A stretch of DNA of 64,000 nucleotides from Escherichia phage VEc74. The notes below the pieces were generated by a model, which was not told the DNA's origin, ran no database searches, and saw only the letters and a list, made by a program, of their open reading frames with translations. Below are positions 3,473 to 33,462 of the stretch, in pieces (position 1 is the stretch's first letter; each line of letters opens with the position of its first letter). The translations under genes were made by a program, and so were the position numbers. The DNA is taken from the sequence record MT932213.1; one strand, given 5' to 3'.

Positions 3473-3997
3473 TTAAAGCAAATTAAACATTTTAACGGTC
3501 GGCAAAACAATTTCTTCTTCTATATAAGAGTATTTAACACTCTCAACTACACGCAAAAAATCATAATCATAATACTCAGAAGCATTACCTAAAATATTAG
3601 TAAGTCCTTCAAGCACTTTATTACCATTCACAAAGAATAAGTCAAATACACGTTCTTCGTCTTCTTCGGATTTATTACCAAGGTCAACTTCTATGTCAAA
3701 GACCTTTTTAATGAATTCTGGATAAAGTTGTTCTGAGAACAGTCCTTCAACCAAGTATTCATAAATAAAAAGCGATTGCTCGCTGAACAAGCCATTACCA
3801 CAATAACGTTCAGCTTTAGTACTAGAATGTCTGCTTTTAAACTTCTTTAAAAGATATTGGAACTGTAAGATTTCATGCTCTTCTACGCCAAACAGTGTTT
3901 TAGTTTTATAATTGTCACCATCATTTTCCCAGGTAGTGACATCAATTACGTAACCCTGCGGAATTGTAGTACCTAAACAAATATTCATTTTCACCAC
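3473..3997 (-). CDS. hypothetical protein, 174 aa
   Basis: Six-frame ORF, overlaps next ORF by 7 nt (operon-like); no motif recognised. Confidence 0.55.
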   Translation of the reverse strand: MVKMNICLGTTIPQGYVIDVTTWENDGDNYKTKTLFGVEEHEILQFQYLLKKFKSRHSSTKAERYCGNGLFSEQSLFIYEYLVEGLFSEQLYPEFIKKVFDIEVDLGNKSEEDEERVFDLFFVNGNKVLEGLTNILGNASEYYDYDFLRVVESVKYSYIEEEIVLPTVKMFNLL

Positions 3998-4281
3998 GCT
4001 GCATTAATATAAGTATATTTAATACATTCAAGACTTAAAGGATTCTTGAAAATATCATATTCAAGAGGACCTTTTTCTGTTTCAATAAAGAAATCAAAAT
4101 TTACTGTATTAAATTTACGGTCTTCCTTCACTAATTTAACCTGAGAAGATGAACGGTCAATGTAAACCTTTTCAACTTCAAAACATGTTAAAATGCCATA
4201 ATCATCAATCAAGGCTTTAGCTGCTTCTTGATCATATTTATATCCATTTTCAACGGATGATACTTTCGCATAAAGAATCAT
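3991..4281 (-). CDS. hypothetical protein, 96 aa
   Basis: Six-frame ORF, tightly packed with neighbours. Confidence 0.5.
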   Translation of the reverse strand: MILYAKVSSVENGYKYDQEAAKALIDDYGILTCFEVEKVYIDRSSSQVKLVKEDRKFNTVNFDFFIETEKGPLEYDIFKNPLSLECIKYTYINAAW

Positions 4282-4283
4282 TA

Positions 4284-4706
4284 TCAGCCTTCATCAACAA
4301 TAGTATGAGTATGGGCATTTACGATTTGCCACCAATCAAAGCGATTAGAACCATACATCGGTTTGTTTTCATTTTCTTTGATAATATCACGGAGTTCATC
4401 TTCGGTAGCGGCTTTCGCGATTAAATCAGCATATCCACCACGAGGATAATAATTATCACCTGCAAAAAGTAAAAAATTTGGTGTAATATTATTGAACTCT
4501 TCAAGAGTAATAACTGTTCCTGATGGTAGTTGAACAATCTCTACATAGTTATATCCTAATTTTTGAGCAGCATCTACTGCTTCAAGCAGAGTATCATGAG
4601 CCCGTCCTATTTGGCAATTTGGCTTTTTAGATGGATTAGCCTGATAATCCGCGTACACTTTATACATTCTATTCACCTTTAGAAATTTTATCCATAACGA
4701 TAGCAA
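4284..4706 (-). CDS. hypothetical protein, 140 aa (possibly 127 aa from MYKVYADYQ)
   Basis: Six-frame ORF; its 5' end overlaps ORF 4669..4854, so the internal ATG at 4665-4667 is a plausible true start. Confidence 0.55.
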   Translation of the reverse strand: MLSLWIKFLKVNRMYKVYADYQANPSKKPNCQIGRAHDTLLEAVDAAQKLGYNYVEIVQLPSGTVITLEEFNNITPNFLLFAGDNYYPRGGYADLIAKAATEDELRDIIKENENKPMYGSNRFDWWQIVNAHTHTIVDEG

Positions 4707-4854
4707 TTAAACCAATTAAAAATGCTACTACAAGTGAAAACACATTTTCTGCTGTAGTTAATAATCCGCATATAAATCCAACAAACATTGAAAAACTAAA
4801 AGCGGAAGCAGAAATTGCAATAGCAGCATTTCGAATTAATTCACAACGTTTCAT
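4669..4854 (-). CDS. small hydrophobic (membrane-like) protein, 61 aa
   Basis: Strongly hydrophobic sequence (AIAISASAFSFSMFVGFICGLL...LVVAFLIGLIAIV); preceded by the conserved leader and early promoter at 4883-4912. Confidence 0.5.
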   Translation of the reverse strand: MKRCELIRNAAIAISASAFSFSMFVGFICGLLTTAENVFSLVVAFLIGLIAIVMDKISKGE

Positions 4855-4882
4855 TTTATTCTCCTCAGTAGTTGATAGGGTA

Positions 4883-4912
4883 ATAGTATCACAACTAAAA
4901 CCCTATGTAAAC
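4883..4912 (-). promoter_or_regulatory. T4-type early promoter with stem-loop leader
   Basis: Minus strand reads GTTTAC, 18 nt, TACTAT, followed by leader ...ctatcaactactgaggagaataaaATG. Confidence 0.6.
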
Positions 4913-4915
4913 AAT

Positions 4916-5140
4916 TTATTCAACACCAGCGGCTTTCAAAAGTTTTTTAAGATTGGCAACACCTTGAGCAGAAAATGTGACCTTGCCACCTTTTTCACTG
5001 ATAGAACCAACCAATTTAGCAAGTTTATCATTAGGAATTTTTTTAAAATCAGACAATGTTCCATCAAAGGTTTTTGAAACAAAAGGCAGTTCGTCTTCGC
5101 GTCTTTTAGCTTCTACAATAAATTCTTTAGATGTTTTCAT
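4916..5140 (-). CDS. internal-protein-like (Ip) protein, 74 aa, N-terminal capsid-targeting sequence MKTSKEFIVE
   Basis: N-terminus matches the T4 internal-protein targeting consensus MKT(Y/F)(Q/K)EFI.E with Glu at a gp21 protease-type cleavage position; own early promoter. Confidence 0.7.
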   Translation of the reverse strand: MKTSKEFIVEAKRREDELPFVSKTFDGTLSDFKKIPNDKLAKLVGSISEKGGKVTFSAQGVANLKKLLKAAGVE

Positions 5141-5168
5141 TTTATTCTCCTCAGTAGTTGATAGGGTA

Positions 5169-5198
5169 ATAATATCACTACCCCATCTAAAAGTAAAC
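5169..5198 (-). promoter_or_regulatory. T4-type early promoter with stem-loop leader
   Basis: Minus strand reads GTTTAC, 18 nt, TATTAT; RBS GAGGAG before the ATG at 5140. Confidence 0.6.
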
Positions 5199-5208
5199 GG
5201 TTTATAAA

Positions 5209-5517
5209 CTATTTTATTCCGCGTGATGCAATTGTGTTCTGCCGTTTAACGCCAGTTTGTTTAAAGTCATGATTGTCGATTTGATCGGTACGAGCAACTC
5301 CGAATGATGATTTGATCTTAGCTTTAGATCCTTTAGTTATAGAAATAAACATCTCGGAAGCCCCTTTCTTAAAGTCCGAGGCGATTACTTCAACGCCGTT
5401 CTTAGCAAGTGACTTCAGAATTGCCTCCGCATACTCATCATCAAGACTCGCCTGAGTATTAATAACGAATGTCTTTGGCGCAGCCGCTTCATTGATAAAT
5501 TCTTTAAATGTTTTCAT
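5209..5517 (-). CDS. internal-protein-like (Ip) protein, 102 aa, N-terminus MKTFKEFINEAA
   Basis: Capsid-targeting-like N-terminus; divergent body; own early promoter. Confidence 0.7.
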   Translation of the reverse strand: MKTFKEFINEAAAPKTFVINTQASLDDEYAEAILKSLAKNGVEVIASDFKKGASEMFISITKGSKAKIKSSFGVARTDQIDNHDFKQTGVKRQNTIASRGIK

Positions 5518-5547
5518 TTTATTTTCCTAATTAATTTTGATGAGATA

Positions 5548-5577
5548 ATAGTATCACTACCCTATTTAAAAGTAAAC
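5548..5577 (-). promoter_or_regulatory. T4-type early promoter
   Basis: Minus strand reads GTTTAC, 18 nt, TACTAT; the -35 overlaps the stop codon of the upstream Ip-like gene. Confidence 0.6.
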
Positions 5578-5850
5578 TCATTTTAAATAAATTGCGTATT
5601 TTTTATAACCCGCTGACTCATGACGAAGACCCTTATCATTAGCAAAACGCTCAATGTTGTTAATTTGATTCTGATCAAGTTCAGAGATGTCAAACACGAA
5701 AAAGTTACGTTTGTTACCAACTGTTATATAGTCAGTTAAATCAATATCATATAGGTAATTGATGTCAGCAATCAAAGTCTTGACAGCTTTGCTAATTTTT
5801 ACTTTTTCGTTAAAAGCAGCTTCAGCAATAAATTCTTGATACGTTTTCAT
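5578..5850 (-). CDS. internal-protein-like (Ip) protein, 90 aa, N-terminus MKTYQEFIAEAAF
   Basis: ORF-track 5578..5910 extends into the promoter; true ATG at 5848-5850 follows the conserved leader; N-terminus matches the T4 IPI-type targeting sequence as I recall it. Confidence 0.7.
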   Translation of the reverse strand: MKTYQEFIAEAAFNEKVKISKAVKTLIADINYLYDIDLTDYITVGNKRNFFVFDISELDQNQINNIERFANDKGLRHESAGYKKYAIYLK

Positions 5851-27069: not shown

Positions 27070-30210
<3,141 letters not shown>

Positions 30211-30238: not shown

Positions 30239-32218
30239 ATGACTTTATTATCTCCGGGCATTGAGCTCAAAGAAACTACGGTTCAAAGCACCGTGGTTAA
30301 TAACTCTACTGGTACAGCAGCTTTGGCCGGTAAATTCCAGTGGGGTCCTGCTTTTCAGATTAAACAGGTTACAAATGAAGTAGATTTAGTTAATACTTTT
30401 GGTCAACCAACCGCTGAAACTGCTGACTATTTTATGTCTGCGATGAATTTCTTGCAGTACGGAAATGACTTACGAGTAGTTCGTGCTGTTGATAGAGATA
30501 CCGCTAAAAACTCATCTCCGATTGCTGGTAATATTGAATACACAATTTCTACCCCAGGTAGTAACTATGCAGTTGGAGATAAAATCACGGTCAAATATGT
30601 TTCAGATGATATTGAAACTGAAGGTAAAATTACTGAAGTAGACGCAGATGGAAAAATTAAGAAAATTAATATTCCTACTGCAAAAATTATCGCTAAAGCG
30701 AAAGAAGTCGGTGAATATCCGGAATTAGGTTCTAACTGGACTGCGGAAATTTCTTCGTCTTCCTCTGGTTTAGCTGCAGTAATAACTCTTGGAAAAATTA
30801 TTACTGATTCTGGTATTTTATTAGCTGAAATTGAAAATGCTGAAGCTGCTATGACAGCGGTTGACTTTCAAGCAAATCTCAAAAAATACGGAATTCCAGG
30901 AGTAGTAGCTCTTTATCCAGGCGAATTAGGCGATAAAATTGAAATTGAAATCGTATCTAAAGCTGACTATGCAAAAGGAGCTTCTGCATTACTCCCAATT
31001 TATCCAGGTGGTGGTACTCGTGCATCTACTGCTAAAGCAGTGTTTGGATATGGACCACAAACTGATTCACAGTATGCTATTATAGTTCGTCGTAATGATG
31101 CTATTGTTCAAAGCGTTGTTCTTTCAACTAAGCGTGGTGAAAAAGATATTTACGATAGTAACATCTATATCGATGACTTTTTCGCAAAAGGTGGTTCAGA
31201 ATATATTTTTGCAACTGCACAAAACTGGCCAGAAGGCTTCTCTGGAATTTTAACTCTGTCTGGTGGATTATCATCAAATGCTGAAGTAACAGCAGGAGAT
31301 TTGATGGAAGCTTGGGACTTCTTTGCTGACCGTGAATCTGTTGACGTTCAACTGTTTATTGCGGGTTCTTGTGCCGGTGAATCTTTAGAAACAGCATCTA
31401 CTGTCCAAAAACACGTCGTTTCAATTGGGGATGCTCGCCAAGATTGCTTAGTATTGTGCTCTCCTCCGCGTGAAACTGTAGTTGGAATTCCTGTAACTCG
31501 TGCAGTAGATAATTTAGTTAACTGGAGAACTGCGGCAGGTTCATACACTGATAATAACTTTAATATCAGTTCAACCTACGCAGCAATTGATGGTAACTAT
31601 AAGTATCAGTATGACAAATATAATGATGTGAATCGTTGGGTTCCATTAGCAGCTGATATTGCTGGTTTATGCGCAAGAACTGATAACGTATCTCAGACTT
31701 GGATGTCTCCAGCTGGTTATAATCGTGGTCAGATTCTTAATGTTATTAAACTTGCTATTGAAACTCGCCAGGCTCAGCGCGACCGTTTATACCAAGAAGC
31801 TATCAACCCGGTAACCGGTACAGGCGGTGATGGTTACGTATTGTATGGTGATAAAACAGCTACTTCTGTTCCTTCTCCATTTGATCGTATTAACGTTCGT
31901 CGTCTGTTTAATATGTTAAAAACGAATATCGGACGTAGTTCAAAATATCGTTTGTTCGAATTAAACAACGCGTTTACTCGTTCATCATTCCGCACAGAAA
32001 CTGCCCAGTACTTACAGGGAATTAAAGCTCTCGGTGGAATTTATGAATATCGTGTAGTTTGCGATACAACAAATAATACTCCGTCAGTAATTGATAGAAA
32101 TGAGTTTGTTGCAACATTCTACATCCAACCGGCTCGTAGTATAAATTATATCCAACTTAATTTCGTCGCAACTGCTACTGGTGCAGATTTTGATGAGTTA
32201 ACTGGTCTTGCAGGTTAA
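30239..32218 (+). CDS. 18: tail sheath protein gp18, 659 aa
   Basis: Size and order as in T4. Confidence 0.95.
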   Translation: MTLLSPGIELKETTVQSTVVNNSTGTAALAGKFQWGPAFQIKQVTNEVDLVNTFGQPTAETADYFMSAMNFLQYGNDLRVVRAVDRDTAKNSSPIAGNIEYTISTPGSNYAVGDKITVKYVSDDIETEGKITEVDADGKIKKINIPTAKIIAKAKEVGEYPELGSNWTAEISSSSSGLAAVITLGKIITDSGILLAEIENAEAAMTAVDFQANLKKYGIPGVVALYPGELGDKIEIEIVSKADYAKGASALLPIYPGGGTRASTAKAVFGYGPQTDSQYAIIVRRNDAIVQSVVLSTKRGEKDIYDSNIYIDDFFAKGGSEYIFATAQNWPEGFSGILTLSGGLSSNAEVTAGDLMEAWDFFADRESVDVQLFIAGSCAGESLETASTVQKHVVSIGDARQDCLVLCSPPRETVVGIPVTRAVDNLVNWRTAAGSYTDNNFNISSTYAAIDGNYKYQYDKYNDVNRWVPLAADIAGLCARTDNVSQTWMSPAGYNRGQILNVIKLAIETRQAQRDRLYQEAINPVTGTGGDGYVLYGDKTATSVPSPFDRINVRRLFNMLKTNIGRSSKYRLFELNNAFTRSSFRTETAQYLQGIKALGGIYEYRVVCDTTNNTPSVIDRNEFVATFYIQPARSINYIQLNFVATATGADFDELTGLAG

Positions 32219-32226
32219 TTGATTAT

Positions 32227-32240
32227 GGGGCTTCGGCCCC
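32227..32240 (+). terminator. GC hairpin GGGGCTTCGGCCCC (UUCG tetraloop) after gene 18
   Basis: Perfect inverted repeat 9 nt after the gene 18 stop. Confidence 0.55.
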
Positions 32241-32305
32241 TATTCTCGAGGAATCAAGTGATTATTTCTAAGTTTGTTACAATAAAACCAAGAAATCATT
32301 CAAAA

Positions 32306-32863
32306 ATGTGGTCGACAATTCTGGGATATAAAGTATTATATCATGATACAGTATCTGTTCCAATAGAATTAATGCCAAAGAATAGTAATAAAATAGTTGA
32401 CGCTAAATGTGATTTATGTGGTATTAAATTTAGTAGAAGCATTCAGCTTTTAAATAGAACACCCACGCATGCATGTAGAAAATGTAGCATTAAACAAGTT
32501 GCTATTAAAAATTCGGAAGTTCAATCTGGAATAAGTAGACCATGGCAAAGAGGTGATAAACATCCTCGATGGACTGGTAAAAGAAAAGAGTTTGCATTAT
32601 ATGCTAGTAGAGTTCATTCTATAACTAAGTCAGCTAAAATAAGAAAAATCTGGTCAAAATGGCCGAATGCTGATAAAATAGGAGTGTGTGGCGTAGAAGG
32701 TGCTTACCAACTCGATCATAAAGTATCTATCAAATATGGATTTGATAATTTAATTCCGCCGGAAATTATAGCAAGCGTAAAAAATTTAGAAATAATCACT
32801 TGGGAATCTAACCGAGAAAAGTCAAAAAGAAATAGCGTAGATCTTTGGGATTTACTAGAATGA
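32306..32863 (+). CDS. HNH-family homing endonuclease inserted between genes 18 and 19, about 185 aa (start uncertain; the ORF is open from 32219)
   Basis: Motifs CDLCGIKF...ACRKC (zinc-ribbon CxxC pairs) and YQLDHKVSIKYGFDN...NLEIITWESNREKSKRN (His-Asn-His); first ATG after the hairpin taken as start. Confidence 0.7.
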   Translation: MWSTILGYKVLYHDTVSVPIELMPKNSNKIVDAKCDLCGIKFSRSIQLLNRTPTHACRKCSIKQVAIKNSEVQSGISRPWQRGDKHPRWTGKRKEFALYASRVHSITKSAKIRKIWSKWPNADKIGVCGVEGAYQLDHKVSIKYGFDNLIPPEIIASVKNLEIITWESNREKSKRNSVDLWDLLE

Positions 32864-32870
32864 TTCTAAA

Positions 32871-32888
32871 GGCCTGTTTCGGCAGGCC
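32871..32888 (+). terminator. hairpin GGCCTGTTTCGGCAGGCC after the HNH gene
   Basis: Inverted repeat read directly. Confidence 0.45.
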
Positions 32889-32889
32889 A

Positions 32890-32897
32890 TATAAATA
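32890..32897 (+). promoter_or_regulatory. late promoter TATAAATA (first of two upstream of gene 19)
   Basis: Exact consensus immediately after the hairpin. Confidence 0.55.
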
Positions 32898-32948
32898 CAC
32901 TATATCCTTAATTCTTTAATTCTATATGCCCTAGGTTAAACATAGGGA

Positions 32949-32956
32949 TATAAATA
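32949..32956 (+). promoter_or_regulatory. late promoter TATAAATA upstream of gene 19
   Basis: Exact consensus 15 nt before the ATG. Confidence 0.65.
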
Positions 32957-32970
32957 CTACAGAGGCTAAT

Positions 32971-33462
32971 ATGTTTGTAGATGATGTAACACGAGCGTTT
33001 GAATCTGGTGATTTTGCTCGACCTAACTTATTCCAAGTAGAAATTTCTTATCTTGGACAAAATTTTACGTTTCAATGTAAAGCCACTGCTTTACCAGCTG
33101 GTATTGTAGAAAAAATTCCAGTCGGATTTATGAACCGTAAAATTAACGTAGCAGGCGATCGTACATTCGATGACTGGACTGTTACAGTAATGAACGATGA
33201 AGCTCATGATGCTCGCCAGAAGTTTGTTGATTGGCAAAGCATTGCTGCGGGGCAAGGAAACGAAATTACTGGTGGAAAACCTGCAGAGTATAAAAAGAGC
33301 GCTATCGTCCGTCAATATGCTCGTGACGCTAAAACAGTAACAAAAGAAATTGAAATTAAAGGTCTGTGGCCTACTAACGTGGGTGAACTTCAATTAGATT
33401 GGGATTCAAACAATGAAATCCAAACATTTGAAGTAACTCTTGCTCTCGATTATTGGGAATAA
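32971..33462 (+). CDS. 19: tail tube protein gp19, 163 aa
   Basis: Size and position as in T4. Confidence 0.95.
   Translation: MFVDDVTRAFESGDFARPNLFQVEISYLGQNFTFQCKATALPAGIVEKIPVGFMNRKINVAGDRTFDDWTVTVMNDEAHDARQKFVDWQSIAAGQGNEITGGKPAEYKKSAIVRQYARDAKTVTKEIEIKGLWPTNVGELQLDWDSNNEIQTFEVTLALDYWE

Follow-up and report, generated by a model that had tools for sequence, protein, structure and literature searches.

A putative free-standing homing endonuclease gene between the tail sheath and tail tube genes of T6-like phages

We analysed the junction between the tail sheath and tail tube genes (genes 18 and 19) in a 64,000-nucleotide stretch of Escherichia phage VEc74 (MT932213.1; the whole stretch is called the window below), where an additional open reading frame (ORF) of the ORF19.1 type lies between the two. 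The window comes from a T6-like Tequatrovirus, its best match being phage G2133 (99.1%; T6, 98.2%). A preliminary description, made from the letters of the window, had read this gene as an HNH homing endonuclease gene inserted at the junction relative to T4. ORF19.1 is intergenic, set between the stop codon of gene 18 and the start codon of gene 19, and is part of neither an intron nor an intein; an Rfam scan found no group I intron or other known RNA around it. As argued below from sequence comparison and a structural model, the product of ORF19.1 is probably a free-standing homing endonuclease, as yet uncharacterised, with the 3' end of gene 18 as its target. The positions of all features are collected in Table 1.

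An alignment of the window with insert-free RB32 and T4 (also T2) and with insert-bearing T6 and phage 132, a comparison of the kind suggested in the preliminary description, bore out the insertion and gave its exact boundaries. An insert of 645 bp, which contains a leader hairpin, a Shine-Dalgarno sequence and the ORF, stands in place of 9 bp (TACGGTGCA); it starts right after the stop codon of gene 18 and ends with the stop codon of ORF19.1, and on either side of it the window otherwise runs collinear with T4, RB32 and T2. When the insert alone was used as a query, insert-free genomes aligned only from query position 642 (window 32863). About 450 insert-free records align to window 32863-32960 at 97-100% identity, and the 208 bp from 32864 onward are 100% identical to T4. 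Related genomes do not all carry the gene at this site; insert-free ones are abundant among Tequatrovirus.

The alignment also showed which signals at the junction belong to the insert. The preliminary description had regarded the downstream hairpin as the insert's own and the duplicated late promoter before gene 19 as a footprint of insertion; the hairpin (GGCCTGTTTCGGCAGGCC) and both promoter boxes (TATAAATA) turned out to be native, being identical in insert-free T4 and RB32. These three elements lie within 98-107 bp that are kept in all insert-free genomes examined, and two perfect boxes 59 bp apart precede gene 19 in every Tequatrovirus examined, insert or not. In the window as a whole TATAAATA occurs 21 times, against 10.0±3.1 expected. 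Conversely, the upstream hairpin (GGGGCTTCGGCCCC), which had been taken for a post-gene-18 hairpin through which the gene is entered, is absent from T4 and RB32 and is part of the insert; its stem is present in all computed folds. In effect, a cassette of hairpin, Shine-Dalgarno sequence and ORF has come to lie between gene 18 and its native hairpin; gene 18 is now followed by a substitute hairpin and ORF19.1 by the native one. Neither hairpin qualifies by score as an intrinsic terminator, because the T-run is absent from both.

We modelled the ORF19.1 protein with AlphaFold2 from 29 homologues (mean pLDDT, the program's confidence score, 87). A small beta/alpha domain that holds a four-cysteine zinc ribbon (pLDDT above 90) spans residues 1-90, and a beta-beta-alpha unit spans residues 145-190; in the latter, D153-H154 end strand 1 (150-154), N176 opens strand 2 (177-181) and N185 lies in the helix (182-190). 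These four residues, which would make up a single active site, are invariant in 29/29 family members, and 68/68 distant homologues of the C-terminal domain have the corresponding D, H, N and N without exception. Of the earlier assignment, an HNH endonuclease with paired CxxC motifs, the four-cysteine ribbon and an HNH-like motif and predicted fold stand. Scans of the protein and the 29 members with these two libraries gave no HNH match (HNH_4 reached E = 0.078 in 1/29) and only weak matches, to zinc fingers and, in 11/29, to the DUF4379 treble clef; a match to Prim-Pol was attributed to chance. Among PHROGs the protein falls into PHROG 5104, 'unknown function' (E = 4e-83), and its own family amounted to 46 clusters in the homologue search.

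The C-terminal domain is widespread. No curated Pfam model covers it. A profile of the C-terminal 74 residues retrieved 1,010 clusters at E <= 1e-10 from 1.84 billion representatives, which is a safer count than the 4,039 matches at E <= 0.001, since the latter may include leucine-rich-repeat (LRR) proteins. Indeed, positions 38-66 of the profile (A3), 'IPPEIIG.I.NLEIITWE.NR', resemble the LRR consensus ('P..IG.I.NL..I.W..N'), and a protein of 3,759 aa with 11 partial matches (P0119) is probably a weak match of this LRR type. The N-terminal partners of the domain are HTH_23, HTH_7 and HTH_38 arrays, NUMOD3, DUF7487 and zinc ribbons. When its members were compared with PHROGs, endonuclease VII was matched by 10/19 (best E = 3.5e-6), and six 'HNH endonuclease' PHROGs by 1-3 members each. 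Comparison with PDB sequences was uninformative: the full-length profile found only zinc-finger and mitoribosomal mS66 proteins, which we judged spurious, and the C-domain profile found LRR proteins, a spurious result of the LRR-mimicking segment. Foldseek returned no significant match in PDB, and among viral models it returned mostly unnamed proteins and a few called HNH, homing or 'endonuclease-like'. Aligned by hhalign with an HNH segment of Cas9, the domain fell into the right register at 1% probability, that is, with no statistical support. We consider the HNH/beta-beta-alpha-metal assignment sound, on the grounds of predicted fold, motif and remote sequence links rather than of a curated model. 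A predicted nuclease cartridge joined to interchangeable DNA-binding modules, NUMOD3 among them, is the architecture of phage homing endonucleases.

Table 1. Features of the gene 18-19 region of the window
Feature	Position	Strand	Remarks
Terminase gp17	28375-30207		
Tail sheath gp18 (gene 18)	30239-32218		
Substitution patch in gene 18 relative to T4	32135..32167	+	codons 633-643, PARSINYI(T to Q)LNFV; 14 substitutions
Gene 18 codon 639	32153..32155	+	CAA (Gln); 63 bp upstream of insertion point
Insert	32219..32863	+	645 bp; leader hairpin, Shine-Dalgarno sequence and ORF to stop
Insert-borne hairpin GGGGCTTCGGCCCC	32227..32240	+	GGGGC-UUCG-GCCCC; directly 3' of gene 18 stop, 8 nt before Shine-Dalgarno sequence
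Shine-Dalgarno sequence GAGGA	32248..32252	+	5 nt 5' of ORF19.1 start
ORF19.1-type gene	32258..32863	+	GTG start, 201 aa and stop; putative free-standing homing endonuclease
N-terminal domain and linker, residues 1-127	32258..32640	+	zinc ribbon; presumed DNA-recognition module; differs between alleles A and B
CxxC pair C51/C54	32408-32419		
CxxC pair C73/C76	32474-32485		
HNH-like beta-beta-alpha-metal nuclease core	32690..32827	+	C-terminal
D153-H154	32714-32719		HNH-like residues
N176	32783-32785		HNH-like residue
N185	32810-32812		HNH-like residue
Native gene 18-19 spacer	32864..32970	+	outside insert; 100% identical in T4, RB32 and phage 132
Native UUCG hairpin GGCCTGTTTCGGCAGGCC	32871-32888		GGCCUGU-UUCG-GCAGGCC; in native spacer
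Late-promoter box TATAAATA	32890-32897		in native spacer
Late-promoter box TATAAATA	32949-32956		in native spacer, which also holds the gene 19 ribosome binding site
Tail tube gp19 (gene 19)	32971-33462		
Portal gp20	from 33534		

We compared the junction across Tequatrovirus, for which about 520 phage records (~517) reach at least 95% identity in the 18-19 region. The insert is present in about a quarter of them, in two allelic forms at the same site. Allele A, the form in the window, occurs in 69-74 records, among them T6, PP01, ECML-134 and PST, and allele B in ~45-50, among them RB3, RB6, phage 132 and pSs-1; the remaining records, such as T4, T2, RB32, RB59 and AR1, are insert-free. The nucleotide identity of A and B is 91-97% in the leader and first codons and 89% in the C-terminal domain, and falls to 53%, with many gaps, in the N-terminal domain and linker. 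With the ORF19.1 protein as a query, tblastn found 243 places in 242 records, one place per insert-bearing genome, and no match in roughly 400 insert-free Tequatroviruses; at least 80% of the protein was covered in one piece in 230/242 of the matching records. No paralogue was found within the window. Three of the records (OR584013.1, PV654520.1 and MG010123.1) are labelled as Pseudomonas phages (PsgM02F, vB_PSGBLB0006) or a Staphylococcus phage (SAJK-IND) and contain Tequatrovirus 18-19 sequence at ~98% identity or an allele-B gene; their host labels or assemblies may be wrong.

Beyond Tequatrovirus we inspected homologues in RZ (Gaprivervirus), L015 (a Gaprivervirus-like contig), Klebsiella phage Roth21, Bp7 (Dhakavirus), CHI14 (Winklervirus), Shewanella phage Thanatos-2 and, outside Straboviridae, Sinorhizobium phage phiM7. 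In all of them, including those with no more than 33-45% identity, the gene has the sheath gene on one side and the tube gene on the other. The insertion point and the leader vary between lineages; in Roth21 the stop codon of the ORF abuts the native hairpin, as in the window. Judged by these sequences, this looks like a family specialised on one conserved neighbourhood rather than a single inherited locus. Close relatives without the gene are L039 and L040 in the Klebsiella group (Jiaodavirus-type) and L014 and L016 in Gaprivervirus. Bp7 has a second gene annotated 'HNH endonuclease' (3769-4350), between gene 19 and the portal gene, and its portal gene is annotated in two pieces, gp20' and gp20 (4408-5630). 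The split portal may be another endonuclease-associated disruption.

The flank of the insert carries a mark of its own. Gene 18 of the window differs from that of T4 at 53 of 1,980 bp, and 14 of these differences, all in one 40-bp interval, fall at 32135-32167, 51-84 bp upstream of the insert (scan-corrected binomial P ~2e-9). Eleven of the 14 are synonymous; the remaining three turn codon 639, ACC (Thr) in T4, into CAA (Gln). The patch is saturated with synonymous divergence inside an otherwise 97%-identical gene, and it is linked to the insert and recurs in several genera. Codon 639 lies in an almost invariant protein motif (PARSINYITLNFVAT) and encodes Thr (ACN) in 10/10 insert-free phages of a cross-genus sample from several genera. 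In this sample the Thr is replaced solely in insert-bearing phages, three lineages in all: in the window, T6 and RZ, all with the 'short' type of N-terminal domain, the position is Gln, and in L015, which has the CHI14-like type, it is Val. Because an otherwise invariant Thr is repeatedly replaced in carriers of two endonuclease types, the comparison suggests that the enzyme recognises a sequence that includes codon 639 and that recoding makes carriers self-immune.

Within Tequatrovirus the flank falls into three haplotypes. The A-type (ATC CAA CTT) accompanies allele A, the B-type (ATT ACT TTG, with AGT ATA AAT TAT) accompanies allele B, and the T4-type was never found with the insert. In evenly spaced rows of the database ranking, which are not phylogenetically independent, the T4-type was present in 0/7 insert-bearing and 14/22 insert-free Tequatrovirus rows (Fisher P = 0.006). 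The B-type string (CGCAGTATAAATTATATTAC) is likewise found next to the Klebsiella copy in Roth21, where the comparison with L039 gave 12 differences in 40 bp (corrected P ~9e-7) and 19/29 differences in the last 100 nt. In the same last 100 nt of gene 18, L015 differs from L014 and L016 at 22-24 positions, as compared with 0-3 per 50 nt in the 550 nt before them, and RZ differs from them at 13-18. If the interval from a cleavage site to a free-standing endonuclease gene is obligatorily co-converted, a pattern of this kind would be expected, by analogy with the mechanism reviewed in PMC2988022, possibly following transfer from a distant donor. The patch at 32135-32167 is a candidate target and immunity region, or else a candidate co-conversion tract imported with the insert.

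We asked how ORF19.1 might be expressed. The 39-nt leader of the insert has no TATAAATA box, and the first copy on its upstream side stands before gene 18, at 30203. The simplest route is therefore that late transcription of gene 18 reads on past the UUCG hairpin. Sigma-70-like sites occur at chance frequency. Public records place the start codon at three positions, giving 185, 201 or 212 aa (region 32219-32306); the family alignment backs the 201-aa GTG start, and the phage 132 record has a ribosome binding site annotated at the position equivalent to the GAGGA of the window. An extended leader stem that would hide the ribosome binding site was predicted and then set aside, as the folding was no better than that of shuffled sequences (z = -0.9). 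In seg43(25) of Aeromonas phage 25, a stable hairpin lies just upstream of an unsequestered ribosome binding site (PMC2988022).

Two further observations concern sequences upstream of the ORF. The insert-linked gene 18 allele has a box (TATAAATT) at 32140-32147, 110 nt before the ORF19.1 start and one base off the late-promoter consensus, where T4 has CATTAACT. The box is common to allele B, T2 and Roth21; RZ has AGTATTAAC and L015 has GATAAATT instead. As it is missing in RZ and L015, we did not adopt it as the late promoter of ORF19.1; it could be a weak promoter for this gene or a chance occurrence. In RZ itself, the leader of the homologue contains a GC hairpin (GCGCG...CGCGC, positions 2466-2488) with a perfect TATAAATA in its loop (2476-2483), followed by an AAGGA site and a GTG start, a layout that the window leader does not have. 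It resembles the promoter-in-hairpin layout described for I-TevI, segB and mobE.

The nuclease activity, target site, direction of transfer and mode of expression that we infer for ORF19.1 would combine as follows. Late in infection, the gene would be transcribed by read-through from gene 18, past the UUCG hairpin of the insert, and translated from the GAGGA/GTG site. On co-infection with an insert-free relative, the enzyme would nick or cut the insert-free genome, probably within or close to the 3'-terminal part of gene 18, which is highly conserved (coding PARSINYITLNF), or where the gene 18 stop codon meets the spacer. Since a single HNH site is predicted, the enzyme may nick rather than cut, by analogy with MobE and Hef, which are reported to be nicking enzymes (PMC2988022). 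Recombinational repair from the insert-bearing genome would then copy the cassette together with the adjacent ~85 bp of gene 18. What would protect the carrier genome is either the recoding of its gene 18 patch (T639Q included) or the interruption of the junction. We put the chances that the target lies within 32135-32167 at about even; a target at the stop-codon/spacer junction, broken by the insert itself, seems a good deal less probable, and a target elsewhere would account for what is left.

Several observations weigh against this interpretation. The A-type flank is also found in insert-free OES_C-1, L007, L013, 215Ecol and AR1, and the B-type flank in insert-free T2, PhiZZ23 and G3G6, and CHI14 carries the gene without a distinctive flank allele. 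The patch is thus linked to the insert and, on these sequences, not diagnostic of it, and a flank allele is no proof of homing. Moreover, L015 and RZ differ from L014 and L016 by an equally dense second patch ~1.25 kb upstream, so these genomes are mosaic in general. The retention of the sheath-tube location across very distant phages could reflect a conserved, non-selfish function, and a literature search found no paper on ORF19.1. The insert-free genomes with A- or B-type flanks do fit later stages of a homing cycle, in which the gene is lost or resistant sites spread.

We considered three other explanations. In the first, the insert is an accessory ('moron'-like) cassette that moved by ordinary or stem-loop-mediated recombination instead of spreading by its own nuclease, in the manner of the promoter/stem-loop (PeSL) cassettes known from T4-type phages, and the protein is a DNA-binding nuclease or regulator with another use, such as attack on competitor or host DNA or evasion of defence. 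The insert does open with a polyG/polyC stem-loop and end at another stem-loop, and PeSL stem-loops, which are often polyG-polyC, flank optional ORFs (PMC2839356). A TATAAT-like box is combined with a hairpin in the RZ and Roth21 leaders, and the 'linked' gene 18 alleles in insert-free genomes would also suit such a cassette. However, the two hairpins share only TTCGG (5 nt), which offers no repeat for recombination. PeSL exchange, with its crossover in the stem-loop, would also leave unexplained both the synonymous divergence 50-85 bp inside an essential gene in several genera and the recurrent change of an invariant Thr, and the NUMOD3 and helix-turn-helix partners of the family are typical of homing endonucleases. 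We therefore regard this explanation as unlikely.

A second alternative, which we hold to be less likely still, is an inactive relic: a former homing endonuclease gene that became fixed in the lineage, is decaying and no longer functions. Decay after fixation is expected of homing endonuclease genes (an established model; see also PMC13619312), and one close copy of allele A, in Pu-Krd-SF7, has a CAA-to-TAA change at codon 89 (Q89stop), with only a 267-nt coding sequence annotated. Against this, the copy in the window is full length with every invariant family residue intact, most matching records contain the protein in one piece, as given above, and the catalytic domain has remained similar between alleles while the rest diverged to the extent described. 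Some other copies may nonetheless be such relics. A conserved helper of morphogenesis or packaging, either a terminase-assisting HNH protein or a factor for sheath or tube expression, would account for the constant position between the sheath and tube genes, and is nevertheless very improbable, as about three quarters of near-identical Tequatroviruses do without the gene, T4, T2 and RB32 among them, yet have normal assembly and packaging, and a nonsense copy exists in the viable isolate Pu-Krd-SF7. A terminase-assisting HNH protein, as in HK97-like phages (HK97 gp74) and GVE2, would be expected to be an essential partner of the terminase and to occur in every member of the phage group, unlike ORF19.1; to our knowledge, T4-type headful packaging needs no HNH partner.

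The proposed homing endonuclease can be compared with several known systems. Like MobA-MobE and Hef of T4, ORF19.1 is an optional intergenic gene of T-even phages in the same orientation as its neighbours and is predicted to encode a nuclease of the HNH superfamily; a single active site, likely nicking and a probably late expression add to the likeness. In Mob proteins, however, the HNH domain comes first and is followed by a distinct C-terminal region (PMC2988022), whereas in ORF19.1 the zinc ribbon is N-terminal and the nuclease C-terminal. We rejected membership of the Mob family on this reversed domain order and on the tblastn results: since these gave one place per carrier and none in insert-free Tequatroviruses, and the window holds no paralogue, the protein is not detectably a Mob relative by sequence. 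The lifestyle proposed for ORF19.1 is that of SegF, SegG and SegB, that is, cleavage inside a conserved neighbouring gene away from the site of insertion of the endonuclease gene itself. With these enzymes the interval in between is obligatorily co-converted, and the rival allele is subject to 'marker exclusion' (PMC2988022; PMC13096335). They belong to the GIY-YIG family, unlike the HNH-like ORF19.1, and their cleavage sites and crosses are known.

I-HmuI and I-TevIII likewise consist of an HNH nuclease and a separate DNA-binding module with a target in a conserved essential gene; they are intron-encoded, whereas ORF19.1 lies between stop and start codons and has the reverse domain order. The best annotated match of the C-terminal domain at the sequence level, T4 endonuclease VII (gp49, PHROG 1035), shares the beta-beta-alpha-metal superfamily, but it is a junction-resolving dimer, has a zinc site of its own and is the product of a core gene, whereas ORF19.1 has a different N-terminal domain and is optional. 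PeSL cassettes (PMC2839356) also consist of an optional intergenic ORF between GC-rich stem-loops with a regulatory leader of its own. The window leader, by contrast, lacks the repeated PeSL and early-promoter consensus, and the insert lies in a conserved virion module rather than a hyperplastic region and encodes a putative homing-type nuclease.

A broader picture, which we put forward tentatively and hold to be less likely than not, is that ORF19.1 is the first example of a large clade of 'reversed' homing endonucleases that domain models do not yet describe, in which DNA-binding modules precede a compact HNH-like C-terminal cartridge (~1,000 clusters at the stricter threshold above, with no Pfam family). 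One lineage of this clade would have followed the end of gene 18 throughout Straboviridae and even as far as Sinorhizobium phages. In Tequatrovirus and Gaprivervirus the same site would be contested by two or three allelic endonucleases that have exchanged recognition domains. Each would go together with a sheath allele recoded for self-immunity, even at the cost of an otherwise invariant sheath residue (T639Q or T639V).

ORF19.1 of T6 has been in GenBank since 1994, and nearly all copies are labelled 'hypothetical protein'. A few records name it 'HNH endonuclease' or 'homing endonuclease', and the labels 'holin', 'putative head morphogenesis protein' and 'type II restriction endonuclease' on others look wrong. 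The gene is uncharacterised and belongs to an unstudied family, and the type of element is ordinary for T4-like phages. If inactive, it would be a routine optional gene. If active, it would be a new and easily testable homing endonuclease in the classical T-even system, and a local zone of marker exclusion around genes 18-19 would be predicted in crosses of T6 with T4 or T2. Activity would also assign a role to a C-terminal domain that, though widespread, has no annotation in current domain libraries. Alleles A and B would then form a natural pair that shares its site and nuclease cartridge and differs in the recognition domain, useful for studying the co-evolution of target specificity and self-immunity.

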